Assembly (NCBI GenBank): GCA_029260965.1
Contig: JAJDCG010000001.1
Span: forward strand, 312,012 to 376,011
DNA from: Candidatus Levyibacteriota bacterium
GTDB taxonomy: Bacteria > Patescibacteriota > Microgenomatia > Levybacterales > UBA12049
Direction: 5' to 3'
DNA: 64,000 bases
The notes beneath the pieces were generated by a model. It was not told the origin of the DNA. It did not search any database and saw only the letters and a program-made list of their open reading frames with translations. Shown piece by piece: positions 1 to 52,770 of the stretch; within the stretch, counting starts at the first letter, position 1, and every line of letters starts with the position of its first letter. Made by a program: the position numbers and the translations under genes.

Positions 1-99
1 GATGTATTGTTGTTTCTTTGCCTGCACTTTGCGCAAGAGTCTTTGCTGGGTCTAATGAGTCGTAGTCAACGCCTGATTCCTGATAGCTTATTTTTTTAT

Positions 100-1071
100 T
101 CATATCGTGATTTTATTTATGTTTTCTATTATACGTTTTTCAATAGGATAATCAAACTCCTCAAAAGTATTCCCAGTTATTTTTTCATAAACTTCAACAT
201 AACGCTGTGCTGTTTGGATTATCAAATCCTCCGACATTTCAGGAGGAGGCCCATCTCCCTGATACCCTTTGTCAGCATACCAAAGACGTAAGAACTCTTT
301 ATCAAAATTCTCTGGCTCCTGGCCTTTGATTATTCTCTCTTTGTATGTATCAGCAATCCAGAATCGTGATGAGTCAGGAGTATAGATTTCATCAATCAAC
401 ATCAATTTTCCATCAAATAATCCAAATTCATATTTTGTATCAACCAAAATAATTCCGTGCTCAGCACACCACCTGCTGCCAAATTCAAACAAATCGAGGG
501 AAACTTTTTCCATTTGTTCATAGAGTTTTTTATTGACAATTTTTTGATTGATAATCTCTTCTCGTGTTAATCTCTCATCATGAACATCGGATCCTGCAGC
601 TGGATGAGTGGTGGGTGTGATGATTGGCTGTTTTAGTCTTTGATTTTTTTTCATACCATCAGGAAATCTAATTCCATAGATATTTCGTTCTCCGTTTTGA
701 TAGGAATACCATACAGATGTTTTGGTAACTCCTGATAGATAGCCTCTTACAACCATCTCAACGGGAATAGGCTTACAATTTCTGGAAATAAGAACATTTG
801 GGTCGGGGACTGAGAGCATATGGTTATCAACTATATTTTTTGTCTTTTCAAACCAAAATGCTGCTAGCTGATTAAGAACTGCGCCCTTGAAGGGAATGTT
901 TCCCAAAATTACATCAAAAGCTGACTGTCTATCTGTTGTTACGGTTATTCTCGTATTATTTTTAATATAAAAATCACGCACCTTGCCCGAGTATTTTTTT
1001 CCAAGATTTGGAAGATCGATAGATTCTAAAGCACGAGGAATTGTATTTAATATTGTTTTTTCATCAATCAT
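100..1071 (-). CDS. purC: Phosphoribosylaminoimidazole-succinocarboxamide (SAICAR) synthase, long (~320 aa) form
   Basis: 323-aa ORF with the SAICAR-synthetase fold (long eukaryote/yeast-like form rather than the ~237-aa bacterial form). Last gene of the overlap-coupled pur operon; 4-nt overlap with purE. Confidence 0.8.
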
Positions 1072-1601
1072 TTATTTTTATCAAGATAATCTTTAACACC
1101 TAGTCTATCAAGCATATCTACCTTTTCCATTACCATATCTTCAAGATCTATTTGATATTTTTCCAATTTTTTCTGAATTTCTTTATTAGTAGCGCCGATT
1201 ATTCGGGCTGCCAGGAGTCCTGCGTTTTTAGCGCCATTTATCGCAACTGTTGCAACAGGTATGCCTGATGGCATCTGGACAATTGATAGAAGTGAGTCAA
1301 GTCCATCAAGGGACTTTGTTTTGACAGGGACACCGATAACTGGAAGAGTTGTGTGAGAGGCAACCATACCTGGAAGATGAGCTGATCCACCAGCTCCAGC
1401 AATTATTACCTGTAAGCCTTTGCCTGATGCTGTTTTGGCATACTCATTCATTCTGTCTGGTGTTCTGTGAGCTGAGACAATTGTTGTTTCGTTTGGTATA
1501 CCAATCTCGTCAAGAATTTTTCCTGCCTCACTCATCACAGGGAGATCACTATCCGAGCCCATTATTATGCCAATGATTGGTTGATTGTTTGAATTCTCCA
1601 T
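1068..1601 (-). CDS. purE: N5-carboxyaminoimidazole ribonucleotide mutase (class I PurE)
   Basis: PurE motifs GSDSDLPVM and [16 protein letters not shown]. Start moved to the internal ATG (MENSNN.., 1599-1601), leaving a 2-nt gap after the purK stop instead of a 46-nt overlap. Confidence 0.85.
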
Positions 1602-1603
1602 TG

Positions 1604-2743
1604 CTATACTGTTATAAGTGACCTTGCTTTTTCTGCCTTTGCTTTGCATTCATCAAGCGAATTTCCAACAACTGTGATGTGTCCCATTTTGCGTTCAATT
1701 CTTGTCTCCAGTTTACCATAAATATGGACAAAAACGCCAGGAATTTTTTCGGCTTTTTTAATTCCTTGAGGCTTTGCTTTTCCTTTTCTTTCTCCAAGTA
1801 TGTTTATCATTACCGAGGCTGGCACAATCATTTTGGTCTCTCCAAGATCCATTCCCGAAATAGCTCTGAGGTGTTGTTCAAATTGAGATGTTTTATTTGC
1901 TTCAATTGTATGGTGGCCTGAGTTGTGAACGCGTGGCGCAATTTCATTTATAAGGATTTCGTTAGCAGCAGTTAGAAACATTTCTACCCCAAATACTCCA
2001 GCTCCATCAAGTAGTTTTATTGCATCTTCTGCTATTTGTTTTGCTTTCGCCTTAGTTTTTTTATCAATGGACGCAGGAGAAAAAAGATAATTAAGAATGT
2101 TATTTTCATGAATTGTCTCAACAACAGGATATGAGTTAATTATACCAGAAGTATTTCTAGCCACCATAATAGCTAATTCTTTCTTAAACGGTACAAACTT
2201 TTCTACATATAAATTTTTGCCATGAAGTTTTCCTAGCGCGTCATCAATTTGATTTTCTGTTTTGATTAATGCATTTCCTCTCCCATCATACGCGCCAGTT
2301 CTAGCCTTTAGCAGTACAGGATATCCAAATTTTTTAATTGCCATTTTTATATCAGATTTTGTTTTTACTTCCAAAAAATCAGGAATCGGTAGATTATTTT
2401 TTTGGAGGAATTCGTTTTGTTTGAGCTTGTCTTGAATAATAGCTAGTGTTTTGGGAGATGGATGAACTGGTTTACCACCGTCCTTGATTTCTTGAAGAAT
2501 GTTTTGGAGTCCTTTCTCATTTGTTACTTCAACTTCAATTGTCAAAACATCTGTTTTGTCAGCAAGTTCCTGAATTGCTTTTTTGTTAGTAAGCTCAGCT
2601 ACTATTTGTTCATCTGCTATTTGTCCTGCAGGGGAATTGGGATCGGGGTCTAGTACTATTAGTGAGAATCCAAGCTTGTGCGCAGGGTCAACCATCATTC
2701 TGGCCAACTGCCCTCCACCAATTATTCCTACTCTAGTTGTCAT
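1604..2743 (-). CDS. purK: N5-CAIR synthetase (ATP-grasp)
   Basis: N-terminal [13 protein letters not shown] and an ATP-grasp body typical of PurK. Start chosen at [11 protein letters not shown] (ATG 2741-2743), which has an AGGAAA SD-like element; the ORF-track start at 2761 has none. Confidence 0.8.
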
Positions 2744-4136
2744 TTGTATTTCCTGATTCATCTATTTCTTTTATAGCTTTTTCTGTTAACTCAACAGCAA
2801 GTCCGATATAGTTTTCGGGAGTCAATTTTTTAAATTTTGTTTTTATATTTTCATCAACTGATAATCCATCAACCCACTTGCTCCAATCTTCAGGATTTAC
2901 GTTTTTTCCTCTTGTAAGAGTCGAGATAAGTGAATAAGGATCATTAACATTTTCTTTCCTTAAAAAGGTTTGAACAGCCTCTCCCAGTATCGACCAGTCT
3001 TTATTAAGCGCCCTTATTATCTCCTCAATGTTTGGTTCAATTCTTGAAAGACCAGCTAGGGTACTTTTGTATCCGATCAAAGAATTGCCAAGAAATGTTC
3101 CGATTTCCCTAAGAGTTGTGCTGTCAGATAAGTCCCTTTGCAGTCTTGAGATGGGTAGTTTGCGGACAAAAAAATCACCCAAAGAATTTGCTATTCCAAG
3201 ACGTCCTTCACTATTTTCAAAATCAATTGGATTTACCTTTTGGGGCATGGTTGACGATCCCACCTCGCCTTTTACAGTAGATTGCACAAACCAATGATCA
3301 CTGATATATCGCCACATATCCTGGTCCAGATCAATTATGATTCCATTTATTCTTTGATAGACTTGGATCATCTCGATTATATCCTCAGGTGGATTGATTT
3401 GAGTTGTAACAAGATTTGGTGTAAGCTCGAGAGATTTTATAAATTTTTCAGAAAATTCAATCCAGTCAATATTAGGATAGGTGTAGAATAAAGCATTAAA
3501 ATTTCCAACAGCTCCATTTAGTTTTCCTGTTAGCTTTAGTGATTTGAGTTTAATTGCCTCGTTGTTTAAGCGAGTTGCAAATACCGCAAATTCTTTGCCG
3601 ACAGTGGTTGGGACCGCTGCTTGTCCATGAGTTCTAGCAAGCATGGGTATAGCTTTGTATTTTTCAGCTCTTTTTACCATTTCACCGACAAGCTTATTGA
3701 GTTTTGGAAGTATTACCTTGTTGGTTGCATCAACTAGCTGCATTCTGTATGAGAGATTATTAATGTCTTCTGATGTGAGACCAAAATGAATCATTTCAAG
3801 TTGATCTTTGAGAGTTGTAGATTCAAGTTTTTTTCTCAATATTCGCTCAACTGCCTTGACATCATGACGAGTTTCTTTTTCAATATCTTTTACTTTTTCA
3901 ATATCTTCATCAGTTATTATTTCACTGCTTAAGTCCTGCAATAATTTTTCTTCTTTTTCTGTAAATTTGCGGGCAATACCTGCAATTGATAAAGCAAGAA
4001 GATATTTGGCTTCAATTTTGATGCGGTTTTTTATAAGTCCGTATTCTGATGTGATGGTTGAGAGTTCATCTACTTTTTGATTATATCTTCCATCAATTGC
4101 AGATATTGATTTTAGGGTTGATTTTTGATCTTTCAT
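2733..4136 (-). CDS. purB: Adenylosuccinate lyase
   Basis: 467-aa ORF of PurB length, with the fumarate-lyase family signature region (GSSTMPQKVNP-like) and the N-terminal IDGRYNQ motif. Confidence 0.85.
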   Translation of the reverse strand: MKDQKSTLKSISAIDGRYNQKVDELSTITSEYGLIKNRIKIEAKYLLALSIAGIARKFTEKEEKLLQDLSSEIITDEDIEKVKDIEKETRHDVKAVERILRKKLESTTLKDQLEMIHFGLTSEDINNLSYRMQLVDATNKVILPKLNKLVGEMVKRAEKYKAIPMLARTHGQAAVPTTVGKEFAVFATRLNNEAIKLKSLKLTGKLNGAVGNFNALFYTYPNIDWIEFSEKFIKSLELTPNLVTTQINPPEDIIEMIQVYQRINGIIIDLDQDMWRYISDHWFVQSTVKGEVGSSTMPQKVNPIDFENSEGRLGIANSLGDFFVRKLPISRLQRDLSDSTTLREIGTFLGNSLIGYKSTLAGLSRIEPNIEEIIRALNKDWSILGEAVQTFLRKENVNDPYSLISTLTRGKNVNPEDWSKWVDGLSVDENIKTKFKKLTPENYIGLAVELTEKAIKEIDESGNTNDN

Positions 4137-4137
4137 A

Positions 4138-5232
4138 CTAACTAATTATATCACTTAGCTTGTTTTGTTCTTGTGCTTTTTTTATTTCCATAGCAATTCT
4201 ACGCCCAACATTTACAGGTTTTCCAAAGAGATAGCCACTGTACGGCGTTGCTGTAATTCCTGGTGATCCGGGGAAACGGGGAGAGACATCTATAACAACT
4301 ATGTCTTTTTTTGGTGGACCTGGTACTATAAATGATTGAAGCGCAAACGGTCCGACAATACCAGGATTTGTTAGTTCTTTGCAGGCTTTTACAAATCTCT
4401 CACCAATTTCAAATGCTGGCTCAAGCATTGATTCAAGAACTGTTACTGCGGTATGACTTGCTTCTTCATAAGAGATTGTGATTTTTTTTAAAACTTCTTC
4501 TTGATAATTAGCTGGCAGTTTGGTTATTCCATGAAAATTTGTTTGGCGTCTGGTATCGGTTCCAAGAAGCTCAAGTCTGTCTGATATGGGTGAATAGAAA
4601 AAGTTGAAGTTAACTTGTACTCCTACGATGAATTCTTCGATCACTGCTTTTTTGATCTGTTCTTCTGTAAAAAGACCGATATACATCTTCTGTTCTATTT
4701 GCTTGAGATAATCTTCATAGCTATCAACTATAAAAAATGCTCTTTCAAATTCTCTGTCTTTCTCGAGAATCTTTACAAGACATACTCTGTCTATTTTTTT
4801 AGGGTCTTTGAATTGTTTGGGGTAGCGGATTTTGGCAACATCAAGAAGGTCGTACTGGTTTGGCTTGAAACCTCTTTCCTCAATTCTTAAAAGTTTTTTA
4901 TTTCCAAACATAGGGACTTCAAATTTATTTTCAATTGCATCATAGTCATTGATATATACCTCAAAAGATCTATTTGGGATAAAAATTGCGTTTGCGGCTT
5001 TCAATTTTTCCTGGATATCAGGATTTAGCACTTCTGAAAATTTATTTACCAAAATTACTTCATCAACACATCCGGTTTCACCCTTTGATTTATAGTACTT
5101 TGCATATGTTTTTTCTCTACCTTTCTGACAAATAATTAAATTTTTAAATCCCTCATCTTTGGCGCCGCGAGCTACTTCGAGTGCCGAATGGCTGCCAATT
5201 GCTGCAATTGTTATTGGTTTATTGCTGTTCAT
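4138..5232 (-). CDS. purP: Archaeal-type formate-dependent FAICAR synthetase (PurP family; DUF1246/DUF1297 ATP-grasp), paralog A
   Basis: N-terminal IAAIGSHSALEVARGAKDEGF and the FFYSP / GPFALQ ATP-grasp motifs resemble archaeal PurP as I recall it. 364 aa. Confidence 0.65.
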   Translation of the reverse strand: MNSNKPITIAAIGSHSALEVARGAKDEGFKNLIICQKGREKTYAKYYKSKGETGCVDEVILVNKFSEVLNPDIQEKLKAANAIFIPNRSFEVYINDYDAIENKFEVPMFGNKKLLRIEERGFKPNQYDLLDVAKIRYPKQFKDPKKIDRVCLVKILEKDREFERAFFIVDSYEDYLKQIEQKMYIGLFTEEQIKKAVIEEFIVGVQVNFNFFYSPISDRLELLGTDTRRQTNFHGITKLPANYQEEVLKKITISYEEASHTAVTVLESMLEPAFEIGERFVKACKELTNPGIVGPFALQSFIVPGPPKKDIVVIDVSPRFPGSPGITATPYSGYLFGKPVNVGRRIAMEIKKAQEQNKLSDIIS

Positions 5233-5233
5233 G

Positions 5234-6727
5234 TTAGTGCTTAAAGCTTCTGATTCCCGTAAATATCATAGCGACATCTGCTTCATTGCAGGCGTCAATT
5301 GTTTCTTGATCTCTGATAGAGCCTCCAGGTTGAATGATTGCTTTAATCCCTGCTTTTATTAATGTGTCTGGTCCGTCTCTGAAAGGAAAAAATCCATCTG
5401 TTGCTGCGACTGCTCCCTCAAGAGGCGTGAGTGCCTTACTGACACATAGCTCGCAACATCTTTTTCTGTCTTGTTGACCAACTCCTGATGCAATCAAAAC
5501 ACCATCTTTTACAGCAACAACACAATTTGATTTACTGACTTGAGATATTTTCCAAGCAAACATCAAGTCATCAATTTGTTTGCTGGTTGGTTTTTTCTTT
5601 GTCACTGTTTTTAGGTTATTTACCTCAAGCCTCATGATATCAGCATCCTGGATCAGATATCCTCCTCTGACTCTCTTTTGATCATCATACGGGACAAGAA
5701 AGGGTTTTTCAAGGTCTTTATTTTCAAGAAGTTGGAGTTTTGGTCTACTACTGAGCTCAGCTAAGGCTTCTTTTGTAAATCCTGGTGCTGCCACTATTTC
5801 AAAAAACTTTTTGTCTGCAAGCATCTGTTTTGCTAGTTTTTCATCTACAACTCTGTTGAATAAGATTACTCCTCCGAATGCCGCCAGGGGATCTCCCTCA
5901 AACCATGCTTTATGAAAAGCATCATGAATATTGTCGGCAATTGCAACGCCACATGGATTGGTGTGTTTTAAAATAACACAGGCAGGTGTTGCGCCGTTGA
6001 TTAGTGAAATTGTCATAAGTCCTGAATCAAGATCTAGATAATTATTAAATGATGTTTCCTTTCCTTGAATAACCTTGAAGTTGTTAAGTCCGAGTTTGTC
6101 TTTTCCATTATCAGAAAAGAAAAAGGCTTTTTGATGAGGGTTTTCTCCATATCTTAATTCTTTTCCGTTTTTTAAAATTTGATATTTATTTTTTGATCCG
6201 AAGAAGTTTGAGATTGAGATATCATATTCTGTAACATATGAAAATGCTTTTGCTGCTAATTTTTTTCTTTCCTCAAGTGTTGTTTGTCCTTTTGTCAGTA
6301 GTTTATAATCGTCAGGATCAACCAAGACAGATACGCTTTCATAGTTTTTGGCTGCAGCCCTTGCCATTGTTGGTCCGCCAATATCAATCATTTCAATACC
6401 AGGTTTTTCGCTGAAGGCGTAAAAATTACAGATTACGAAATCTATATGAGGGATTTTTAATTCTTCTGCTTCTTTCTGATGAGTTTTATTGCTTCTGTCA
6501 AAGAGAATTCCTGAGAGCGCCTGAAAGCTAATTGTCTTTACCCGACCACCAAAACTTTCAGGGTTTTTGGTAATTTCTTCAATTGGTGTAATCTTGATTT
6601 TATTTTTCTTGAGAAGTTCAGCTGTGCCGCCGGTTGCAATTATTTCTATATTATTTTTTATGAGGTTTTTTGCCAGATCTACAATTCCGGTTTTGTCATA
6701 AACACTAATTAGGGCGTATTTCTTCAT
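5234..6727 (-). CDS. purH: Bifunctional AICAR transformylase / IMP cyclohydrolase
   Basis: N-terminal MGS-like IMPCH domain (ALISVYDKTGIV..ATGGTA) and C-terminal AICARFT domain with the KHTNPCGVA motif. Full length at 497 aa. Confidence 0.9.
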   Translation of the reverse strand: MKKYALISVYDKTGIVDLAKNLIKNNIEIIATGGTAELLKKNKIKITPIEEITKNPESFGGRVKTISFQALSGILFDRSNKTHQKEAEELKIPHIDFVICNFYAFSEKPGIEMIDIGGPTMARAAAKNYESVSVLVDPDDYKLLTKGQTTLEERKKLAAKAFSYVTEYDISISNFFGSKNKYQILKNGKELRYGENPHQKAFFFSDNGKDKLGLNNFKVIQGKETSFNNYLDLDSGLMTISLINGATPACVILKHTNPCGVAIADNIHDAFHKAWFEGDPLAAFGGVILFNRVVDEKLAKQMLADKKFFEIVAAPGFTKEALAELSSRPKLQLLENKDLEKPFLVPYDDQKRVRGGYLIQDADIMRLEVNNLKTVTKKKPTSKQIDDLMFAWKISQVSKSNCVVAVKDGVLIASGVGQQDRKRCCELCVSKALTPLEGAVAATDGFFPFRDGPDTLIKAGIKAIIQPGGSIRDQETIDACNEADVAMIFTGIRSFKH

Positions 6728-6729
6728 AA

Positions 6730-7746
6730 TTATCCAAGGATTAGGGGCAGCTTGTTTTTTTCAATTGCAATTTTTATCTCCCTTGCGATCCTCCTTCCTG
6801 TGCTCATTGGTTCGTTATAGTAGAGCCATGAATATGGAGAGCCGTTGGTAAAGATGTTTGTGCCAGCGACAATCCTGCAGGAAATTTCAAGAACGTAAAA
6901 TTTGGCATCAGGGGTGATTATGGTTTCAAGACAAAAAGGTCCAAAAATTCCTTTTTTATCTATTAATTTTCTGGATGCTTCAATTGTTTTTCTGCCCATA
7001 TCATATGCTTCAGGCAGCATACTCTCACGTAACACAAGATCACTGTTTCCAACAACAACATAACTTGGTTCAATGTCTAGCCCTTCCTGTCCAAGAAGTG
7101 GAATTCTTCCTATCCCATCAGCATTTGTTTCATATCTTCTGTCCATGCTCATAATCTCCAATTTGTCAGTAAGAGGAGAGTAGAAATAATGTATGTAAAG
7201 AGGTACACCAATCACGTATTCTTGAATTATGAATTTTTTATTACCAAAAGCAATGATTTTTTTTTCAAAATCAGTTTTGTTTTTTGCGTAAAAATATCCT
7301 TTTCCACCAGCTGCACCATAAGATTTCACAATAATTGGATAAGTGACCGGTTCGTGTTCGAAATCATACTGTTTAGGAACATTAATTCCTGCTTTGCTGA
7401 GCCACTCTCTTTGTTGTCTCCTGTCTTCTTCCCAGTCAAGAACACTCTTATTGCCATAATATGGCAATTTCATGTTTTTGTTCTTTTCTGTTCCAAGATG
7501 AGCTACAAATGAACCATGAGGTATGATAATGACGTTTTTTTCTTTTAGTTTATCCTCGATTGAGGGAAAGTCTGAAAATGAAGCAAGAGTTATGAATTCA
7601 TCAATAAAGGGAAATGATTTGTAGAATTCCTCTCGTTCTTTTGTGGTGATTATGAGAGTTTTAAAGCCTTCGTCTTTGGCGCCTTTTAATATCTGAAGCG
7701 ATGAATGACTTCCTAGTGTCGCAATTGTGTGTTTATTATTTTTCAT
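6730..7746 (-). CDS. purP: Archaeal-type FAICAR synthetase (PurP family), paralog B
   Basis: IATLGSHSSLQILKGAKDEGF, IIPHGSF, HYFYSP, GPFCLE and LSTGRRIAREIK motifs closely follow PurP. 338 aa. Confidence 0.7.
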   Translation of the reverse strand: MKNNKHTIATLGSHSSLQILKGAKDEGFKTLIITTKEREEFYKSFPFIDEFITLASFSDFPSIEDKLKEKNVIIIPHGSFVAHLGTEKNKNMKLPYYGNKSVLDWEEDRRQQREWLSKAGINVPKQYDFEHEPVTYPIIVKSYGAAGGKGYFYAKNKTDFEKKIIAFGNKKFIIQEYVIGVPLYIHYFYSPLTDKLEIMSMDRRYETNADGIGRIPLLGQEGLDIEPSYVVVGNSDLVLRESMLPEAYDMGRKTIEASRKLIDKKGIFGPFCLETIITPDAKFYVLEISCRIVAGTNIFTNGSPYSWLYYNEPMSTGRRIAREIKIAIEKNKLPLILG

Positions 7747-7749
7747 AGT

Positions 7750-8553
7750 TTATTTATTAAAATATTGTACAGCATTTTTGAATATAGATAAACCCGGTCC
7801 TTCAGATGATGTTTTTTTGCCTGTTCTTTTGTGCTCTTCTTTTTTAATTTGCCAGTTGGGGAGTTGGGTAAAAAACATGCCCCGTTCAGGGTGTGGCATG
7901 AGACCCAGTATTTTTCCTGATCCATCAATGATGCCTGCTATATCAAGCGCTGATCCGTTGGGATTGTAGGGAAGATCAAGATATTTACTCATTTCGCCAG
8001 CCTCATATTTTAGTGCAATTTGTTTGTTCGTTTCAAGTTTTTTGAGATCATTTGCTTTTGCAAAAAACTTTCCTTCTCCATGCGCAATTGGCAAAGATAG
8101 TTTTTCTATTCCATCAAGCCAGGGAGTTTTGGTGGTTACTTTTAGATCAGTCCAGCGACATATGAATCTCGCGCTTTCATTATTTAAAAGCGCCAAATCT
8201 CTTTGACCATAGTTATTTTCAAATGCTGGAAAAAGTCCAGTATTGGCAATAATTTGACAACCATTACAAATTCCGATTACTAATTTATCTTTTTCTATAA
8301 ATTTCAATAACTTTTCCCAGAGATGATTTTTAATCTTGTTTGCGTATGCGATACCAGCTCCTGTATCATCGCCATATGAAAATCCTCCGGGAAAAGAAAG
8401 AATCTGGTAGTCATCGAGTTTGTAAAGTCCATCAATTATGTCATTGATGTGGATTATCTCTGATTCAGCACCAGCCAGTGTAAAGCCATATGCTGTTTCT
8501 GCTTCCGAGTTTAGTCCGTATCCTGAGAAAATTAGCACTCTTGGTTTTTTCAT
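7750..8553 (-). CDS. purQ: FGAM synthase glutaminase subunit
   Basis: Class-I glutamine amidotransferase: GICNGCQ nucleophile elbow and HPER near the C-terminus, which are PurQ hallmarks. Confidence 0.85.
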   Translation of the reverse strand: MKKPRVLIFSGYGLNSEAETAYGFTLAGAESEIIHINDIIDGLYKLDDYQILSFPGGFSYGDDTGAGIAYANKIKNHLWEKLLKFIEKDKLVIGICNGCQIIANTGLFPAFENNYGQRDLALLNNESARFICRWTDLKVTTKTPWLDGIEKLSLPIAHGEGKFFAKANDLKKLETNKQIALKYEAGEMSKYLDLPYNPNGSALDIAGIIDGSGKILGLMPHPERGMFFTQLPNWQIKKEEHKRTGKKTSSEGPGLSIFKNAVQYFNK

Positions 8554-8555
8554 AT

Positions 8556-11522
8556 TTAATAATCTTTAAAAGTTTTTTTATATTGATTTTTTGCGTTATT
8601 AAGCTTTATGTTTACTATTTTCTTTCCCGATAAGCCTTTTATTATTATTTCAGGTTTTTTTGTAACTGTTCCAATTTGTTTTATTTTATTTCCACTCATT
8701 GTCTTTTCAAATGCTTTTTTATTTTTGGGTGCGATTGATATTAGAATTCTGCCTTGGCTTTCTGAAAAAAGAGCCAGATCATTTCTTGTGATGCTACCTG
8801 GAAGATTTTCAAGTGACACATCAACACCCAGCATCCCACCAATTGATTTTTTGGCAATAGCAACAGCCAGACCGCCTTTGCCTATGCTGATACTTGATGC
8901 GATCAGTTCTTTTTGAATTGCTTTGTAGAAATCTTTGTACATTTTAAAATTCTTTTTTGTATTTACAATTGGTGTTTTCGTACTGCTGACATTCTTCATA
9001 GATAAATACTCGGATCCTCCCAGCTCATCAAAAGTTTCACCTAGGATATAAATCAAATCATTTTCCTTTTTTGCATCAAGAGAAACTGTTTTGTTTATAT
9101 CCTCAATAACACCAATTGATGAGATCAGAAGGGTTGGGGGAATTGTGACTTTTACTGGTTTGCTGTTTTTGTCAAAACCGTTGAATTCATTAAACATGCT
9201 GTCTTTTCCTGAAATGTAGGGAGTTTGATAATCAACTGCAGTGTCATAGCATGCTTTGGCTGCCATTTTTAGTTGAAAAAGCCTTTGGGGGGTATTGCTT
9301 TCTGTCCAGCAAAAATTATCAAGCAAAGCGATATAGTCAGGATTGCCACCTATTGCAACTGCATTGCGAACTGCTGTATCTATACTTGCTGCAGCCATAG
9401 CATAAGGATTTATGTCAGAGTAGTTTGGATAAAGAGCTTGAGACATCACAACGCCTCTTTGAGACTGAAGAACTGGACGGAAAACAGACGCTTCTGAGTT
9501 TACTCGACCTGATCCCTGGAGTGGCCCGAGGACTGCACCTCCGAGCACTATGTGATCGTACTGGCTAGAGATGAATTCAATGCTGGTTATGTTTAATCTT
9601 GCAAGCATCTGAGAAACAGACATGTTTAGATTCACATCTGTTGGTATTGTTGCCTGGTGCTTGTTGTTTGTTGTTTTGTCAGAAATCATCTTGCGTTGGG
9701 GTAATCCGTCGTGGAGAAATTTCATATCAATATCGAGAATTGTTTTGTTTTTGTATTTTACAATTCCTTTTTTTGAGTTGGTAAATTTACCAATTATCGT
9801 TGCTTCAACGCCTCGTCTTTTCATAAGGGAGTTAAATTTAACCCAGTTTTTTTCTGGAACAGCAAGGGTCATTCTTTCTTGAGATTCTGATATCCAGATT
9901 TCCCAAGGGTCCAGGCCCTGGTATTTGAGTGGGGTTTTTTCAAGATCGAGTACAAATCCTCCTGACTCTTTTGCCATTTCTGAAACAGAGCAAGACAGTC
10001 CTCCTGCTCCATTATCAGTTATGCTGCTGTAGAGAAGTTGATCTCTTGCTTCATTTATAATTGCGTCGCTTAATTTTTTTTGTGTGATAGGATCACCGAT
10101 CTGGACTGCTGCTGCTGGGCTTTTAGTGTTTAGGCTTTCTGAAGAAAAGGTTGCTCCGTGCACACCGTCTTTTCCGACTCTTCCACCGATCATGACTATC
10201 AGGTCACCAGGTTGAGCATTTTTGATGTGTGAGGGTTTATTTTTTATTTTTTTGGGAATAAGACCTATTGTTCCCGCAAAGACAAGCGGTTTTCCTCTGT
10301 AGCCCTCATGGAAATAAACAAATCCCTGAGGTGTTGGGATTCCTGATTGATTACCACCTGCATTTATTCCAGCAATAACCCCATCCATAATTCTGCGGGA
10401 TGAGAGCATTTTTTGAGATTTATTTTTATTTCTATATAAAGGTATGTCTATTGCAGGATCTGCAAGGCAGAATCCATAAAAATTTGCAACCGGTTTGGCT
10501 CCAAGTCCAAATCCCAGTGTGTCGCGATTGACACCTACTATTCCAGTTATTGCTCCGCCAAATGGATCAAGAGCTGATGGGCTGTTGTGTGTTTCGACTT
10601 TATGAGTGATTAAATAATTTTCATCAAACGAAATGCCACCTGAATTGTCAGTGAATACTGATACGCAAAAATCTTTCTTTCCTTTAATTTTCCTTATTTT
10701 TTCAGTTGCGCCCTTGATGTAGGTTTTATATAGCCCATTTTTAATATTGTCGATTGGATCATTAAAAATAGTGTGCTTACAATGCTCAGACCATGTTTGG
10801 GCAAGTGATTCCAGCTCTATATCAGTTGGGCTTCTTCCAAGTTTTTTAAAATATTTTTGAATGGTTTTCATGAATGAAAGATCAAGTGCTAGGGGGCCAC
10901 GAGTTGTTCCGTCCTGGTTTTGGATTCCATTTTTTCCTATTTTTGCTAGCTCTTCATCGCTGATATTTAGATTTATCTCAATGACTTTTGGTTGATGCTT
11001 TATATCTACTTTTGGAACGAATAAATCCATTCCGCCGTCTTTTAGGAATTGCTGATAGCTCTTGATGTGGGCTCTCTGGATAAGAGGATTGTAAAGAGTT
11101 AGCGATATTTCTTTTGCGTCTTTTTCAGACACTTTGCCTGTCAAAAAGGTTACTTGAGACGAGTAGACATCTTCACCGTTCCTAAATTTTGTTTTTAGAC
11201 TATCTTCAATTATTTCTTTTGCAGTATGTCCGATGTTGTCTGTAACTCCAGGTAAAAATCCAATCTCAATTGCAAAGGTGAATTTTTTAGGAGGTGTAAA
11301 TCTAGCTTTTTCTGTTTGAAAGACAACTGATTGGGTTAGGGGATTTGATAGTTTTTTCCCGATTGATATCAGTTGTTTATCATCTAGTTTTTTTGCAACA
11401 GTATAAATGTCATAGATCCAAAGATCTTTTATTTTTTTAAATCCCTGATTTTTCAGTTTATCGATACGATTTTTGGCTCTGGTATCAAAAACATTTGTAA
11501 TTATTCCAATTCTTGCTGTCAT
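8556..11522 (-). CDS. purL: FGAM synthase synthetase subunit with a fused large-PurL-type (PurS-like) N-terminal domain
   Basis: 988 aa. Residues ~200-250 (GRSPTDIELESLAQTWSEHCKHTIF) match the linker/start of the FGAM-synthetase domain in single-chain large PurL (cf. E. coli ..[25 protein letters not shown]). The ~200 aa before it correspond to the PurS-like N-domain. There is no glutaminase domain (PurQ is separate). Confidence 0.85.
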   Translation of the reverse strand: MTARIGIITNVFDTRAKNRIDKLKNQGFKKIKDLWIYDIYTVAKKLDDKQLISIGKKLSNPLTQSVVFQTEKARFTPPKKFTFAIEIGFLPGVTDNIGHTAKEIIEDSLKTKFRNGEDVYSSQVTFLTGKVSEKDAKEISLTLYNPLIQRAHIKSYQQFLKDGGMDLFVPKVDIKHQPKVIEINLNISDEELAKIGKNGIQNQDGTTRGPLALDLSFMKTIQKYFKKLGRSPTDIELESLAQTWSEHCKHTIFNDPIDNIKNGLYKTYIKGATEKIRKIKGKKDFCVSVFTDNSGGISFDENYLITHKVETHNSPSALDPFGGAITGIVGVNRDTLGFGLGAKPVANFYGFCLADPAIDIPLYRNKNKSQKMLSSRRIMDGVIAGINAGGNQSGIPTPQGFVYFHEGYRGKPLVFAGTIGLIPKKIKNKPSHIKNAQPGDLIVMIGGRVGKDGVHGATFSSESLNTKSPAAAVQIGDPITQKKLSDAIINEARDQLLYSSITDNGAGGLSCSVSEMAKESGGFVLDLEKTPLKYQGLDPWEIWISESQERMTLAVPEKNWVKFNSLMKRRGVEATIIGKFTNSKKGIVKYKNKTILDIDMKFLHDGLPQRKMISDKTTNNKHQATIPTDVNLNMSVSQMLARLNITSIEFISSQYDHIVLGGAVLGPLQGSGRVNSEASVFRPVLQSQRGVVMSQALYPNYSDINPYAMAAASIDTAVRNAVAIGGNPDYIALLDNFCWTESNTPQRLFQLKMAAKACYDTAVDYQTPYISGKDSMFNEFNGFDKNSKPVKVTIPPTLLISSIGVIEDINKTVSLDAKKENDLIYILGETFDELGGSEYLSMKNVSSTKTPIVNTKKNFKMYKDFYKAIQKELIASSISIGKGGLAVAIAKKSIGGMLGVDVSLENLPGSITRNDLALFSESQGRILISIAPKNKKAFEKTMSGNKIKQIGTVTKKPEIIIKGLSGKKIVNIKLNNAKNQYKKTFKDY

Positions 11523-12793
11523 AATCTGCCTATATCTGATCTGTATTGCATTCCCTCAAAATGTATTCCGTTTGGGCCAATTGTACTGTAAGCCTTTTTT
11601 AGGGCCTCATTTAGAGTTTCACCTGTTGCTGTTATGCCCAGGACCCGACCGCCGTTTGTGACAAAATTGTTTCCATTTTTTTTGGTAGCAAAGTGAAAGG
11701 TAGTAATTTCGGGATCATGGGCAAATTTCTCCAATCCGTTGATTGCAATCCCTTTTTGCGAACTGACGGGATAACCATTTGATGCAAGGACAATGCAACA
11801 AGCGATTTTTTTTGACCATTTTATATTTATTTCCGAAAGTTTTTTTTCTACGCAAGCGTTTAATATTTCAAAAATATCTGTCTCAAGAAGTCTCATGTAG
11901 GACTCCATTTCTGGATCACCAAAGCGTGAATTAAATTCAATTACTTTCGGTCCGTCTTTTGTCATCATCAATCCTGGATAAAGGCATCCTGTAAAGGGAA
12001 TTCCCATTTTTTTCATTCCCTGAATTGCTGGAGTCACAATTTTTTCTTTTATTTCATTAATTTCTTTTTCTGATATTTCAGAAAGTGGCGCGATAGTTCC
12101 CATGCCACCGGTATTGGGACCTCTATTGCCATCGTGAATTGGTTTGTGATCTCTTGCTGTTGGGAAAAGTGAAATTGTTTTTCCGTCAGAGAATGCATGG
12201 ATTGAAACTTCCTTACCCTCCAGATATTCCTCGATTACTATTTCCGCTCCAGCATCACCAAAAACTTTTTTGATCATCGCATCATTAATTGCGCTGATTG
12301 CTTCATTGATTGTTTTTGCAACAACAACGCCTTTGCCCAATGCGAGGCCTGATGCTTTTATGACAATGGGTGCTCCATGTTTTCTTGTATAATCTTTCGC
12401 TTTTTCAGCATCAGTAAACGTTTTGTATCTTGCTGTTGGTATATTATTTTCCCTCATCAGGTTTTTTGCAAACGCTTTTGATGACTCAATTTGCGCAGCT
12501 TCTTTTGTGGGACCAAAAATTTTGAGTTCATGTTTCTCAAAGGTGTTTACTATGCCAGATGCTAAGACATCATCAGGTCCGGCAATAGTTAGGTCAATCG
12601 AGTTTTCTTTTACGAATTTGATGAGGGATTCAAAATCAAATGGGTTGATGTCTGTGTTTTTTCCGACCAGCTCAGTGCCTGCTGTTCCTGGGGCAAAATA
12701 AATATTGTTAACCTTTGGTGATTGTTTTAATTTCCAGCCCAATGCATGTTCTCGTCCTCCTGATCCAATAATTAATATGTTGTTTTTTACCAT
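11519..12793 (-). CDS. purD: Phosphoribosylamine-glycine ligase (GAR synthetase)
   Basis: N-terminal ILIIGSGGREHALGWKL; ATP-grasp; 424 aa. Confidence 0.9.
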   Translation of the reverse strand: MVKNNILIIGSGGREHALGWKLKQSPKVNNIYFAPGTAGTELVGKNTDINPFDFESLIKFVKENSIDLTIAGPDDVLASGIVNTFEKHELKIFGPTKEAAQIESSKAFAKNLMRENNIPTARYKTFTDAEKAKDYTRKHGAPIVIKASGLALGKGVVVAKTINEAISAINDAMIKKVFGDAGAEIVIEEYLEGKEVSIHAFSDGKTISLFPTARDHKPIHDGNRGPNTGGMGTIAPLSEISEKEINEIKEKIVTPAIQGMKKMGIPFTGCLYPGLMMTKDGPKVIEFNSRFGDPEMESYMRLLETDIFEILNACVEKKLSEINIKWSKKIACCIVLASNGYPVSSQKGIAINGLEKFAHDPEITTFHFATKKNGNNFVTNGGRVLGITATGETLNEALKKAYSTIGPNGIHFEGMQYRSDIGRL

Positions 12794-14916
12794 ACAAAAT
12801 CTCCTTTACTGATATCGATATTTTGGCTAATAACGTGAAGTACTCTTTTTATAGCTGTTGGTAAAACCTGGTATTCTGTTTCATGTATTTTTTTCTCCCA
12901 TGTTTCAAATGAATCGTTTTTGTGTCTGGCAACCTCTGATTTTAATATAATCGGGCCTATATCAAAATTTTCGCTTGGAATCACTTGATGAACAGTGACA
13001 CCTGATACTGGAAGATTTTGATCATACGCTTCTCTTATTGCGTGAGCGCCTCTGATTACGGGAATTTTTCCTTTGGATGTGCGGATTGTTTCTTTGAATT
13101 CTTTTGTCATTAGTGAAGGGTGGAGATTTATTACTGGTATTTCAAGGTTCTGCATTTCTTTGAGGAATTTATATCCTAGTACCAACATCCAGCCTGACAA
13201 TATAATGAGGTCAGGGTTTGTATTTTTAACCTCAGCAGTCAATTTTTCTTCATAGTTTTCACGTGTTTTTTTATCTGAAAGTTTACCCTGGTATGGAATT
13301 ATTGATATCGGAATATTATGTTTTTTGGCTCTAATTGTAGCGTATGCATCTTCCTTATTGGAGAGGACAGATATAATTTTTGCGTTTATATCGTTAGACT
13401 CAATACGATCTATTATTTTTTGTAAATTTGTTCCTGATCCTGAAACAAAGATAGAGATTTTGGGCTTGCTATTTATTTTTTTATGCATTTTTTTAAATAC
13501 AAATTGTTCGTCTCTTACAGGATGTGGGCCACCGAAAATGTAGTGATAAAAATCTTCTTTTTTACCACCCATTGCAAGTGCTGTTTCTTCAATGGGTAGG
13601 TATATTACTTCATCTGCTTTGACTTTTTTTGCCATTTCTTTTTCTATAATTTCAATTGGTTCATTTTCAAATGCGGATGCAGCCAATTCTTGTTTAGTTC
13701 TCATATCAATTCCTAAATCGCATTGATTCACAACAGGAGGGGATGCAAAAGCCATATATATTTTTTCAGCACCAGCATCTCTGATGTCTCTTGCTAGTAT
13801 TGTGCTTGTTGTTAGTCTGACTGCAGAGTCGTCAACAACTATCACTTTTTTTCCTCTGATCTCATCAGCAACAACATTATGCTTACCACTTACTGCTGCA
13901 ATTCGGTTCTCTTGACCAGGTCTTATAAAGGTGCGTCCGACATAGTGACTTGTGGTAATAGCATCAACAATAGGAATATCAAGTTCTTTGGCAACTCCTT
14001 TGGCAGCAGGATACCCAGAGTCGAAAATGGGGATAACAATATCTGCCTTGATTCCCTTGTTTCTTATCCGTGTTCCTAGGAACTTTCCTGATTTTTCTCG
14101 TCCTGCTTTTACTCTTTTACCGTTTGCAAAACTGTCAGGGCGTGAGAAGTAAATTCCCTCAAAGATGCACGGCTGTGGTTTTTTAACAGTCCCGAAAAAC
14201 TGAGAATTGATAGTGCCTTCATCGTCAATGCGTATTATTTCCCCGGGTATGATGTCGCGTAGGTATTCTGCTTTTAGAATATCTAAAGCAACCGATTCAG
14301 ATGCCATAACCCATCCGTCATGAAGTTTTCCAAGGCAGAATGGTCTGATACCGTATGGGTCTCTAATGCCGAATAGTTCATTGTCATTAGTGACAATAAC
14401 TAGGTTGTATGCGCCGTTGAAAAGGGGCATACATTTTTTTATAGTATCTATCCAAGTTTTATATTTTGGTCTTTCCTGGATCAAAAATTCTGCAACAATG
14501 TTCGTATCGCTATCTTGTTGTTTTTTATTTTTTAAAAGTTTTATTACATTTGAAACATCAGGAATATTTCCGTTGTGGCCTATTGATATCTCAAATTTTC
14601 CATTTTTCAGGTGAATTGGCTGAGCATTGTTTAAAGAAGATTGTCCAAAAGTACCGTATCTGTTTTGACCTATCGCAAACTTACTTTTGCCGAATTTTTT
14701 TACAACCTTGTCATTGAGAACGTGTGGTATGAGTCCCATGTTTTTGTAGGTTAAAATTTTATTTTTTGCTCCAATAACACTCATACCAGCACTTTCTAAT
14801 CCACGGTGTTGGAGTGTGGCGAGACCTGATCTCGCATAGTATGCTGCATTGCTATCAGCGGTGTAGATACCGATGACTCCACATTTTTCATGAATATCTA
14901 ATTTGCTGTTTCTCAT
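12787..14916 (-). CDS. purF: Fusion protein: amidophosphoribosyltransferase (PurF) + phosphoribosylglycinamide formyltransferase (PurN)
   Basis: Residues 1-~470 carry an 11-aa propeptide then Cys (MRNSKLDIHEKC-GVIG), the Ntn glutaminase domain and a PRTase domain (VIVVDDSAVRLTTS). Residues ~480-709 carry a PurN domain (SGSGTNLQ, NLHPSL, SGVTVHQV..DIGPII). Confidence 0.8.
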   Translation of the reverse strand: MRNSKLDIHEKCGVIGIYTADSNAAYYARSGLATLQHRGLESAGMSVIGAKNKILTYKNMGLIPHVLNDKVVKKFGKSKFAIGQNRYGTFGQSSLNNAQPIHLKNGKFEISIGHNGNIPDVSNVIKLLKNKKQQDSDTNIVAEFLIQERPKYKTWIDTIKKCMPLFNGAYNLVIVTNDNELFGIRDPYGIRPFCLGKLHDGWVMASESVALDILKAEYLRDIIPGEIIRIDDEGTINSQFFGTVKKPQPCIFEGIYFSRPDSFANGKRVKAGREKSGKFLGTRIRNKGIKADIVIPIFDSGYPAAKGVAKELDIPIVDAITTSHYVGRTFIRPGQENRIAAVSGKHNVVADEIRGKKVIVVDDSAVRLTTSTILARDIRDAGAEKIYMAFASPPVVNQCDLGIDMRTKQELAASAFENEPIEIIEKEMAKKVKADEVIYLPIEETALAMGGKKEDFYHYIFGGPHPVRDEQFVFKKMHKKINSKPKISIFVSGSGTNLQKIIDRIESNDINAKIISVLSNKEDAYATIRAKKHNIPISIIPYQGKLSDKKTRENYEEKLTAEVKNTNPDLIILSGWMLVLGYKFLKEMQNLEIPVINLHPSLMTKEFKETIRTSKGKIPVIRGAHAIREAYDQNLPVSGVTVHQVIPSENFDIGPIILKSEVARHKNDSFETWEKKIHETEYQVLPTAIKRVLHVISQNIDISKGDFVW

Positions 14917-14959
14917 AAGTATGAATTATAAAAAAATAATTCTAAAGTTTTCTGATTTT

Positions 14960-14988
14960 GGGACGAAAAACCCCGCGTCGTAGCGGGG
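14960..14988 (-). terminator. Leader hairpin (CCCCGC-loop-GCGGGG) followed by T5 on the minus strand, inside the purF 5' UTR
   Basis: Forward 14971-14988 ccccgcgtcgtagcgggg. The minus-strand reading is hairpin then TTTTTCG (forward A-run 14966-14970). It lies between the putative promoter and the purF start codon. Confidence 0.4.
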
Positions 14989-15056
14989 CTGCAAAAATTT
15001 AATGATATCTATTTTTAATAATCTTGAAATTATGGACCATGTAGTTTCCATACATG

Positions 15057-15085
15057 ATTATAATTCATTTGAGTTTTGGTGTCAA
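15057..15085 (-). promoter_or_regulatory. Near-consensus sigma70 promoter for the pur operon (TTGACA-17 nt-TATAAT)
   Basis: Minus strand: TTGACA (forward tgtcaa 15080-15085), a 17-nt spacer, TATAAT (forward attata 15057-15062). About 135 nt upstream of the purF ATG. Confidence 0.45.
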
Positions 15086-15465
15086 TTATCTTTCAAAATT
15101 GCTATCATTATAATGACGTGAAGAAAATAGTTATTAGAAATATATTTGTCATATCTATAATTTTTCTTATTGTTTTTTTAGTTTCAGCAAATGAAGAGTA
15201 TATCAGAAGGAAAGCTATTTCTCTTCTGGGAGATGGTACTTCTCAGGTAAGGGGTGCTAGCACAGAGAAGGGGGAAGAGGTATCAGGAAAGATCAGCTCA
15301 GATATTGGCGACCAAATGAGCTTAATAAAAGATGATTTGCTTGACATAAGAATAGGGGACATTATGGATGGTTTGTCTCGTGCTAGAAAAATTTCTCATG
15401 ACCTTAGTCAAGTAAGTATTTATATTCGAGATAAAGTTGATGGTGTGTTACAATCTGATAAATAA
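15076..15465 (+). CDS. Hypothetical small membrane-anchored protein (N-terminal TM; alternative GTG start at 15115)
   Basis: The ORF starts with TTG in the track and there is no ATG. It has a hydrophobic N-terminus (IVIRNIFVISIIFLIVFLV) then a charged soluble part. It ends 3 nt before prfB. Confidence 0.35.
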   Translation: MVSIIFQNCYHYNDVKKIVIRNIFVISIIFLIVFLVSANEEYIRRKAISLLGDGTSQVRGASTEKGEEVSGKISSDIGDQMSLIKDDLLDIRIGDIMDGLSRARKISHDLSQVSIYIRDKVDGVLQSDK

Positions 15466-15468
15466 TTT

Positions 15469-16470
15469 ATGGATGATTTAAAAACTAGACTTAAAAAAAT
15501 ACTAGAAAGAATAGATCCTGATTCTCAAAAAGCAAAAATAAGAGAACTAACAGCAGAAAGTATGAAGCCGGATTTTTGGCAGGATCACCAGAAAGCTGCA
15601 AAAAAGATGAAAGAGCTGTCTGATTTACAAAATGAGGTAGACGAGGCGGAGAAGTTGTTTGTTTTTGTTGAGGAAGGAAATGAAAAAGAAGCAGAAAAGC
15701 TGTTAAAAAAAATGGAGACTATATTATTCTTTTCAGGGGAGCACGATAGTGCAAATGCAATAGTTGGAATCCACTCAGGGCAGGGTGGGACAGAGGCAAT
15801 GGATTGGGCTGAGATGCTTTTTCGTATGTATACGAGATATTTTGAGAAAAAGGGCTGGAGCTATGAAATACTTGATCAGACAACAGGTGAAGAAGCTGGA
15901 ATAAAAAGCATAACAATTGCAATTAGTGGGAAATATGCTTATGGTTATCTCAAGCATGAGGCAGGCGCGCATCGATTGGTGCGTCAGTCACCGTTTAATG
16001 CTGATAAATTGCGTCAAACATCATTTGCATTAGTTGAGGTAATGCCTGAAGTTGAGGATGCAAAAATTGAGCTCAGAGATGATGATATCGAATTCGAAGC
16101 TTTTAGATCTGGTGGTCATGGGGGTCAAAATGTAAATAAGGTTTCGACCGCAGTGCGCTTGAAGCACAAGCCAACCGGAATTGCAGTTGCGGCATCGGTT
16201 GAAAGATCGCAAATTCAGAATAGGGAATTTGCCATGAAGTTGCTTCGCGCAAAATTGTGGGCAATTGAGGAAGAAAAGCAAAAGAAAAAGGAGGCTGAGC
16301 TAAAAGGTGGATACAAAACCCCAGGTTGGGGAAATCAGATCCGCTCATACGTATTGCATCCATACAAAATGGTTAAGGACCTCAGGACTCAAGTTGAAAC
16401 AGGAAACACCGACGCAGTGCTTGATGGGGATTTGGATATGTTTATTGAAGAAGAACTGAGGAGTTTATAA
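15469..16470 (+). CDS. prfB: Peptide chain release factor 2
   Basis: The SPF tripeptide (RF2-specific) and the GGQ motif are present, with overall RF2 collinearity. There is no programmed +1 frameshift site. Confidence 0.9.
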
Positions 16471-16906: not shown

Positions 16907-17662
16907 TTATTTTCCGCCTCCGCCTTTTTGCCATTTGACTGCTGTCAGGAATTTGCCGTAGAGATCCTTTTCCATGGGCCAGATTACAGCATCTAGTTCT
17001 TTTTTGTTTGGGACTCTATCTTGAAATTTTACAAACGACAGGTCTGTGAAGACAGAGAGTGGGGTTTGTTCTTGAGCTTCCCCCATGGCAAGCGCTGCTG
17101 CAGTTGCCAGTGAGTCAATGACATTTACTTTTATCCACTCAATATTGCGACCAAAAATATCTTTTTCACCGACATGGTTCTTGACTGCTTCAAATCCACA
17201 CCAACTCATACCAAAACCTAGAGTTCCAGTTCGTCCTGGATTGAACCTGCTGTCAGTTATAATTATTCCCAGATTTTTTAGTTTATGTTTATTTTTTAGA
17301 TATTCCCAGATATCGTTTGTTTTTTTCTGGAGATTTCGCGGCCAGAGAATATAATTCCCATCAGCGTTTGATTCATCAATTCCTGCGGTAAAAACTATGT
17401 GTCCGTTTTTGCGAGTTAAAAATACTTTTCCATACGGTGTTGGGACTGGCGCCTCTACGTATGAATCAGCTTCTTTCTTGATAAGTTCGTCTTTATCGGA
17501 GACATCTTTAACAGGGATTACATCTTTCTGGGTTATGCTTATGATTTTGGATGTGATTGCAACGATTGATTTATCTTTGAGATTTGGTAAATACTTATCG
17601 AGGATTTTATAAATATTATCTCTAGTTTTTATTTTGTGGGTTTTGTATGATTTGACAATCAT
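16907..17662 (-). CDS. F420-0:gamma-glutamyl ligase (CofE)-like family protein (PF01996-like)
   Basis: IVAITSKIISITQKDVI and TAGIDESNAD motifs resemble the CofE / folate-type gamma-glutamyl ligase family. A glycine-rich C-terminus is present. Confidence 0.55.
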   Translation of the reverse strand: MIVKSYKTHKIKTRDNIYKILDKYLPNLKDKSIVAITSKIISITQKDVIPVKDVSDKDELIKKEADSYVEAPVPTPYGKVFLTRKNGHIVFTAGIDESNADGNYILWPRNLQKKTNDIWEYLKNKHKLKNLGIIITDSRFNPGRTGTLGFGMSWCGFEAVKNHVGEKDIFGRNIEWIKVNVIDSLATAAALAMGEAQEQTPLSVFTDLSFVKFQDRVPNKKELDAVIWPMEKDLYGKFLTAVKWQKGGGGK

Positions 17663-17668
17663 GAAATT

Positions 17669-44051: not shown

Positions 44052-44052
44052 T

Positions 44053-45066: not shown

Positions 45067-45070
45067 CTTC

Positions 45071-45607: not shown

Positions 45608-45610
45608 TCT

Positions 45611-46468: not shown

Positions 46469-46470
46469 TA

Positions 46471-47349: not shown

Positions 47350-47363
47350 ATAATTATTAAATT

Positions 47364-48650: not shown

Positions 48651-48653
48651 AGA

Positions 48654-49610: not shown

Positions 49611-49621
49611 AATAATAAATT

Positions 49622-52768: not shown

Positions 52769-52770
52769 TT

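Follow-up and report, generated by a model that had tools for sequence, protein, structure and literature searches.

A predicted twelve-gene de novo purine operon with an archaeal-type PurP gene pair in a Candidatus Levybacteria genome

The pur operon of Bacillus subtilis (purEKBCSQLFMNHD) is a polycistronic unit of 12 overlapping genes, preceded by a 5′ leader with a guanine riboswitch and a terminator. [quoted passage not shown] A stretch of 64,000 nucleotides (nt) of contig JAJDCG010000001.1 from a Candidatus Levybacteria genome (hereafter the window) was analysed, in which 11 successive minus-strand open reading frames (ORFs) for purine synthesis cover positions 100–14916. The region is, with high confidence, a de novo purine operon leading from phosphoribosyl pyrophosphate (PRPP) to inosine monophosphate (IMP), consisting of 12 co-directional, translationally coupled genes of which the last, purM, is cut by the left window edge, and including the PurP gene pair, promoter and leader hairpin proposed below. 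With the gene order purF-N, purD, purL, purQ, PurP-A, purH, PurP-B, purB, purK, purE, purC, purM the operon is an ordinary and complete one. Like that of B. subtilis it is one long operon from PRPP to IMP with overlapping or near-touching junctions, separate PurL and PurQ, PurK together with class I PurE, and a terminator-like hairpin in the leader between promoter and first gene. It differs in gene order, in the fusion of purF to purN, in carrying PurS as a domain of PurL, in its two PurP genes and in a leader in which no purine riboswitch or other Rfam family was detected.

The closest described counterparts of the two PurP genes are archaeal. MJ0136 of Methanocaldococcus jannaschii (cluster Ia) is the sole PurP with demonstrated activity as a synthetase of formyl-AICAR (FAICAR), AICAR being aminoimidazole carboxamide ribonucleotide (PMC6486802). 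Clusters Ia and Ib were defined by Brown et al. 2011 by a (K/R)GG(K/R)G P-loop and Asn258, and cluster II by a loop that is two residues longer and devoid of those glycines, together with His258 (PMC3261824); His27 and Arg314 are conserved in both archaeal clusters, and any genome carrying cluster Ib carries one, and only one, gene of cluster II (PMC3261824). Clusters Ib and II correspond to PurP II and PurP III in PMC6486802 and in Zhang et al. 2008. Brown et al. speculated that the IMP cyclohydrolase still missing from Crenarchaeota and Pyrococci might be one of the paralogs (PMC3261824). In a 2019 survey of 1,403 genomes PurPs were found only in Archaea (PMC6486802), and no paper linking PurP or DUF1297 to CPR was found in the literature; the databases annotate these proteins automatically.

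ORF families in the window were assigned by Pfam and NCBIfam profile searches using the NCBIfam equivalog cutoffs, and bit scores are given with their cutoffs (Table 1). All family assignments that a first-pass annotation of this DNA had made for the 11-gene block held in these searches. Possible pseudogenes and misread frameshifts were checked and none was found, the ORF lengths being equal to the gene calls in the nearest relative. The same annotation had described the junctions as gaps of 1–3 nt or overlaps of 4–11 nt, which is correct once the internal starts used in the relative (purK at 2743, purE at 1601) are applied, the overlaps then being 4, 7 and 11 nt; the tight translational coupling that it had proposed is supported. 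It had also placed purA far from the block, at a distance that was measured as ~47.8 kb. PurH carries both of its domains and scores above its equivalog cutoff, as a bifunctional enzyme should. By family membership, PurF would convert PRPP to phosphoribosylamine (PRA), PurD would form glycinamide ribonucleotide (GAR), PurN formyl-GAR (FGAR) and PurL(S) with PurQ formylglycinamidine ribonucleotide (FGAM); PurM would then yield aminoimidazole ribonucleotide (AIR), PurK with class I PurE carboxy-AIR (CAIR), PurC succinyl-AICAR (SAICAR), PurB AICAR, and PurH FAICAR and IMP.

For comparison, 80 related Microgenomates loci (labelled L001, L002 and so on) were used, and the presence of purH and purM was read within these loci, for purH within ±10 kb. 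A homology search with PurP-B returned proteins of CPR and Microgenomates, the best match (93% identical) coming from a metagenome-assembled genome (MAG) of Candidatus Levyibacteriota. The nearest loci were all from Candidatus Levyibacteriota or Levybacteria, followed by Davies-, Roizman-, Curtiss-, Woese- and Gottesmanbacteria (Microgenomates, Patescibacteria), in agreement with the small-genome, low-GC lineage suspected beforehand. Relatives of PurP-B were present in at least 575 species-level genomes, and all informatively named ones were Microgenomates; loci titled, for example, 'uncultured Gammaproteobacteria' bear the same cluster, and such titles look like submission labels. Elsewhere the window holds bacterial housekeeping genes (SecA, GroES/EL, LepA, SerRS, MurJ, S20, FtsEX, TsaE, SecDF and release factor 2, RF2) and a large number of genes for nucleotide sugars and surface proteins. 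A complete, compact de novo purine operon is carried, within the CPR, by Levybacteria and by many further Microgenomates.

The first-pass annotation had reported that purM was lacking and that every step except AIR synthetase was covered. Both statements were wrong: purM is the 12th gene, beginning within the first 103 bases of the window, and the 12 genes serve all steps from PRPP to IMP. On the minus strand the bases just past purC read ...ACGATATGAATAAAAAA..., and the frame opened by the ATG in this segment runs to base 1 without a stop. The resulting 34-codon peptide was 58% identical over 31 amino acids (E = 2e-10) to the N-terminus of the PurM of a relative and matched the start of a purM-like ORF in 57 of the 80 loci (tblastn). 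In this relative (L001/L002, a Candidatus Levyibacteriota MAG) the gene order is identical and is followed, right after purC, by a 12th gene that starts 4 nt before the purC end, encodes 368 amino acids with AIRS and AIRS_C domains and has a convergent CorA gene behind it; window and L001 share the ATGA overlap with the stop codon of purC. The purM-like protein of L001 has AIRS (PF00586) and AIRS_C (PF02769) matches at E ~1e-10 each and a length within the ~340–370 amino acids expected of PurM, and its sole NCBIfam match is TIGR00878 (purM; 171.2 bits, E = 3.2e-50). Two points count against so complete an operon: this score is below the equivalog cutoff of 236.35, so that the relative's protein is taken as a divergent PurM, assigned with the help of its operon context; and in the genome under study purM is visible for its 34 N-terminal codons only, so that an intact gene is a prediction there.

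That the organism truly has no purM would agree with the result of the Pfam scans, in which no complete single-domain AIRS/AIRS_C ORF was found among non-overlapping ORFs of at least 90 amino acids in the 64-kb window, and with the presence of two PurP paralogs, which look one too many beside PurH. This explanation is nevertheless most improbable, given that the first 103 bases open an ORF homologous to the PurM N-terminus of relatives with the same gene order. purM was found in 62 of the 80 loci (15 of the remaining 18 have too little sequence to show it) and occurs in these 62 together with both PurP genes, so the PurP genes are not substitutes for purM; both PurP proteins, moreover, keep the residues that contact AICAR and the formyl group (His27, Ser94, Ser266 and Arg314). 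Replacement of PurM by a PurP paralog was likewise considered and ruled out by the purM behind purC in the relative and by the match of the first 103 bases of the window. A purine pathway lacking AIR synthetase thereby falls away, and a false lead is avoided. Among the 80 loci, purM follows purC on the same strand in 17 and on the opposite strand in 33, lies between purQ and PurP-A in 11 and elsewhere in one. It stands directly after purC in the window, L002, L010, L014, L073 and L080; in the Levybacteria relatives L003–L006 and L008 the two are spaced by 650–1770 nt, which suggests an inserted gene there. In Curtissbacteria-type loci purM is found between purQ and PurP-A, and in Daviesbacteria-type loci it is convergent after purC, with purK often missing from the cluster.

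Upstream of purF-N, the promoter listed in Table 1 is the only perfect TTGACA-17-TATAAT match in positions 1–15500, and TTGACA and TATAAT-like boxes line up with it in leaders from related loci. Within the operon, sites resembling promoters or terminators were no commoner than in shuffled sequence. A single polycistronic transcript of ~14.8 kb had been proposed; one unit is indeed likely, with the sole 12/12 promoter lying upstream of purF, but the length is rather ~15.9 kb plus leader, because purM of the relative encodes 368 amino acids. Between promoter and first gene lies a GC-rich hairpin with a T-run that is conserved in relatives, which is the arrangement of a terminator-type attenuator. 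The hairpin was present in both the minimum free energy and the centroid folds and, as CCCGC...GCGGG-T5-7, forms the only invariant block of the leader alignment, the leader being otherwise AT-rich. The motif C[CT]CGC-N3-12-GCG[GA]G-T4+ occurred 10 times in 1.49 Mb (window and loci, both strands) against 0.5 expected, and nine of the 10 occurrences sit 31–146 nt upstream of purF (window, L002:213, L007:94, L008:190, L014:640, L015:270, L050:1424, L068:1550 and L071:1509). In L007 and L008, ~10 nt lie between the T-run and the start of purF, too few for a second promoter, so readthrough must be possible there, which points to attenuation. Several leaders have a short, non-conserved ORF that ends 4–19 nt before the hairpin.

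Transcription most likely starts at the promoter (15085–15057), passes the hairpin (14988–14966) and would give one mRNA of ~16 kb, and the hairpin probably attenuates it in response to some signal; as a conserved leader element it is a candidate new regulatory element for CPR purine genes. Two observations speak against this picture. Eight aligned leaders showed no antiterminator, no complementary segment upstream and no conserved aptamer. The window also has a further TATAAT 8 nt upstream of the ATG of purF, so that this genome does not strictly need readthrough of the hairpin. Searches against Rfam 15 (purine, ZTP, PRPP and tetrahydrofolate riboswitches and others) gave no match at the gathering score in the whole window, and at E ≤ 10 only chance-level matches to unrelated families in 14850–15150.

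Both PurP assignments held under profile search, with DUF1246 and DUF1297 found at E-values of 2e-42 to 6e-69; no NCBIfam PurP equivalog cutoff was reached by either protein (PurP-A: NF009779, 391.5 bits, cutoff 580). All three of their sequence matches in the PDB are archaeal PurP structures: PurP-A matched P. furiosus PF1517 best (355 bits) and MJ0136 with 315 bits, and the best match of PurP-B was MJ0136 (233 bits). Between themselves the two share 35% identity. The AlphaFold2 (AF2) model of PurP-B keeps the PurP fold, with a template modelling (TM) score of 0.76 to 2r7m. PurP-A has the P-loop AGGKG, with Ala rather than K/R in first position, and Asn258 (MJ0136 numbering); PurP-B has the loop DREFERA, which is two residues longer than the P-loop and without its glycines, and His258. 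Loop type and residue 258 were perfectly correlated among 72 aligned family members (24 with G-loop and Asn, 45 with the other loop and His, three with neither Asn nor His). The canonical motif E-x-S-x-R-x-x-x-G-T-N, a position that we take to carry metal ligands in ATP-grasp enzymes, reads D-V-S-x-R-x-P-G-S-P in PurP-B. A neighbour-joining tree built from family representatives places PurP-A with PF1517 and PurP-B in the P-loop-less half, where it groups with a clade that a homology search with its representative P0147 showed to be from Archaeoglobales; no pur neighbours were found in the genomic context of the Ferroglobus cluster II gene.

Judged by these diagnostic sequence features, the predicted pair is a bacterial instance of the archaeal cluster Ib and cluster II pair, and one Ib gene is accompanied by one II gene as in Archaea. 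As in the archaeal pairs, a paralog with P-loop and Asn258 and a paralog with longer loop and His258 always occur together and are usually adjacent; the pairs of Sulfolobales and Pyrobaculum are adjacent and beside pur genes (PMC3261824), and the window pair likewise stands among pur genes. The differences are that the host here is a bacterium of the CPR and that Levybacteria have a full bifunctional purH between the two; most archaea that possess the pair have neither PurH nor PurO. Compared with MJ0136 (PDB 2R7K), fold, family and the residues contacting formyl group and AICAR are conserved in the window proteins, but PurP-A is closer to PF1517, and PurP-B has no P-loop and carries His where MJ0136 has Asn258. 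In these bacteria the archaeal Ib/II pair is widespread, although PurP is treated in the literature as specific to archaea.

Among the 80 loci, PurP-A and PurP-B are adjacent in 68, and in nine (Levybacteria-type) only purH lies between them. The pair comprises the best-conserved proteins of the cluster, with 61–93% identity to the window compared with 31–92% for the other Pur proteins. purH was not found within the ±10 kb searched in 39 loci (L014, L016, L050, L057, L061, L068–L071 and L075–L081 among them), purH elsewhere in those genomes being unchecked; L014 has an apparently complete cluster without it (F-N-D-L-Q-Pa-Pb-B-K-E-C-M). Adjacency, conservation and the loci without purH fit, without proving, a complementary two-protein module predicted to act on AICAR/FAICAR. 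PurP-A and PurP-B would jointly take AICAR towards IMP by a route that depends on formate and ATP, parallel to PurH in this genome and possibly replacing PurH in relatives without a purH in the cluster. Three points weigh against such a route: assays of P. furiosus PF1517 and PF0421 reportedly showed no AICAR formyltransferase activity for either type (Zhang et al. 2008, cited in PMC3261824); PurP-B has no glycine-rich P-loop and the Asn of its GTN motif is replaced (D-V-S...PGSPG); and the full-length PurH makes a PurP route redundant in the window.

A more extended proposal is that the pair is a formate/ATP-dependent module for the conversion of AICAR to IMP in which PurP-B serves either as the 'missing' IMP cyclohydrolase or as a partner subunit that is indispensable, that this module crossed between Archaea and Microgenomates and stands in for purH in about half of the Microgenomates clusters, and, separately, that the leader hairpin is the expression platform of an undescribed purine-responsive attenuator; taken with all its parts together it is tentative and on balance doubtful. 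An alternative is that PurP-A and PurP-B work independently and redundantly as formate-dependent FAICAR synthetases, being isozymes by which 10-formyl-tetrahydrofolate is spared, while PurH provides the cyclohydrolase step only. It draws on the membership of both in the PurP family, whose characterised member MJ0136 is a FAICAR synthetase (PMC6486802), on the substrate-contacting residues kept in both, and on the position of PurH, with its IMP cyclohydrolase domain, between the two genes. We nevertheless regard it as unlikely, since an equivalent isozyme is not to be expected in PurP-B without the P-loop glycines and with the GTN Asn replaced, since the strict pairing in CPR, and likewise in 61 archaeal taxa (PMC6486802), suggests that the roles complement each other and are not redundant, and since the 39 clusters mentioned above have the pair but no purH nearby. 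As a putative complementary module, the pair in Microgenomates offers a second, independent phylogenetic setting for the question of what the two paralogs do, and its strict pairing, conservation and frequent lack of a nearby purH bear on the missing IMP cyclohydrolase of Crenarchaeota and Pyrococci. The PurP pair and the leader hairpin are leads, not established discoveries.

The block had also been described as a mixture of archaeal-type and bacterial-type enzymes, possibly assembled horizontally. The mixture is real (PurP on one side; PurH, PurN and PurK with class I PurE on the other). As regards horizontal assembly, gene-level mosaicism was found among the relatives for purF-N and purB, but the cluster with its PurP pair is widespread in Microgenomates and has the composition of its flanks, so any archaeal transfer of PurP would be old and not a recent island. 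Compared with the closest relative, purF-N is 61% identical and the other ten genes are 79–93% identical; a purF-purN fusion is present in 11 of the related loci, and eight have the two genes apart; and purB is of two unrelated types among the loci, one of them ~30% identical to purB of the window. The divergence of purF-N and the two purB types argue for some gene-level replacement within a syntenic operon. They could also be read, together with the report of PurP from Archaea only (PMC6486802), as signs that the whole block is a recently acquired foreign island of archaeal and bacterial genes. Such an island is improbable: the GC content of the block (0.355–0.377) resembles the values in the remainder of the window (0.348–0.432), no mobile-element genes flank it, and the cluster with the PurP pair is spread over the species-level genomes counted above, those with informative names all being Microgenomates, with a gene order that follows lineage. 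By flank-like GC and lineage-following gene order, the block as a whole is predicted to be native to the lineage.

The label purSL given to the large FGAM synthase gene proved right, PurL carrying a PurS-like N-domain. Residues 1–215 gave no sequence match in Pfam or the PDB; the AF2 model of this domain (predicted local distance difference test, pLDDT, 91.9) matched the N-domain of large PurL from Salmonella and from human (prob 1.0, E = 4e-6) and also the free-standing PurS 2cuw (prob 0.97). As in large PurL (Salmonella 1T3T, human PFAS), the PurS-like domain, the linker and the pseudo-dimeric FGAM synthetase lie in one chain; in contrast to it, no glutaminase is fused at the C-terminus, the glutaminase being the separate PurQ encoded 2 nt downstream, a split that is kept in the relative. 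As modelled, PurL is a large PurL minus its glutaminase domain.

Table 1. Purine genes and upstream elements in the window, with family evidence (cutoffs in brackets where given).
Feature	Coordinates	Strand	Description and evidence
purM, 5′ end	1–103	-	34 codons; ATG (103–101) overlaps purC stop (ATGA); rest beyond window edge
purC	100–1071	-	SAICAR synthetase, long form, 323 amino acids; Pfam SAICAR_synt E = 2.6e-66; NF009251 408.6 bits (cutoff 371)
purE	1068–1649	-	class I N5-CAIR mutase; longest ORF from 1649, likely ATG 1601 (177 amino acids, as in relative); TIGR01162 221 bits (cutoff 149.6)
purK	1604–2761	-	N5-CAIR synthetase; likely ATG 2743 (379 amino acids), 11-nt overlap with purB stop; TIGR01161 444.7 bits (cutoff 318.4)
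purB	2733–4136	-	adenylosuccinate lyase; NF006764 569 bits (cutoff 446); Pfam Lyase_1 and ASL_C
PurP-B	4138–5232	-	PurP-family ATP-grasp, cluster II (PurP III) type, 364 amino acids; DUF1246 and DUF1297
purH	5234–6727	-	bifunctional AICAR formyltransferase / IMP cyclohydrolase, 497 amino acids; NF002049 553 bits (cutoff 402); Pfam MGS and AICARFT_IMPCHas
PurP-A	6730–7746	-	PurP-family ATP-grasp, cluster Ib (PurP II, PF1517-like) type, 338 amino acids; DUF1246 and DUF1297
purQ	7750–8553	-	FGAM synthase glutaminase subunit, 267 amino acids, long GATase_5 form; GATase_5 E = 5.4e-76, profile positions 1–260 of 260; TIGR01737 175.5 bits (cutoff 177.8, just under)
purL	8556–11522	-	with fused PurS-like N-domain, 988 amino acids; two AIRS/AIRS_C repeats and FGAR-AT_linker; TIGR01736 519.7 bits over residues 219–987
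purD	11519–12793	-	GAR synthetase; TIGR00877 501 bits (cutoff 288)
purF-purN fusion	12787–14916	-	709 amino acids; amidophosphoribosyltransferase 12–463, TIGR01134 332.8 bits (cutoff 350, below); GAR formyltransferase 486–694, TIGR00639 153.5 bits (cutoff 150.1)
Leader hairpin	14966–14988	-	CCCCGC-TACGAC-GCGGGG then TTTTT; terminator-like candidate attenuator; T-run ends 49 nt upstream of purF-N ATG
Promoter, sigma-70-type	15057–15085	-	TTGACA-17-TATAAT, 12/12 consensus, reads towards purF-N
purA	62704–63975	-	adenylosuccinate synthetase, unlinked; Adenylsucc_synt E = 8e-164; NF002223 549.8 bits

Divergent from the pur promoter, the RF2 gene (15469–16470, plus strand) encodes 333 amino acids and scored 429 bits with TIGR00020; it is preceded by a 129-amino-acid ORF without a family match. 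A programmed +1 frameshift in RF2 (15076–16470) was considered and is not needed, since the 333-amino-acid ORF represents a short RF2 at full length and the relative has one of this kind too. At 16907–18397 (minus strand), some 2 kb away from the pur operon, a gene of the CofE family (F420-0:gamma-glutamyl ligase) stands beside one with a weak match to the S component of energy-coupling factor (ECF) transporters (28.2 bits, below the Pfam cutoff of 30.7). The CofE-family gene would not be expected in a CPR bacterium and might serve the polyglutamylation of a salvaged cofactor, perhaps folate. A 102-amino-acid ORF (41781–42089, plus strand) matches positions 31–84 of 264 of the TsaD/Kae1 profile only and adjoins Sua5/TsaC (41178–41759), with TsaE nearby at 36549–36989; a pseudogene, or a TsaB/TsaD-like gene that has been truncated, could account for it. 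The plus-strand run at 43311–54303 is devoted to nucleotide sugars and glycosylation, with RmlA-, RmlB- and RmlD-like genes, UDP-glucose dehydrogenase, three more epimerase/dehydratase genes (among them GDP-mannose 4,6-dehydratase), GT2 glycosyltransferases and also a PMT_2 mannosyltransferase, and is a typical CPR investment in the cell surface.

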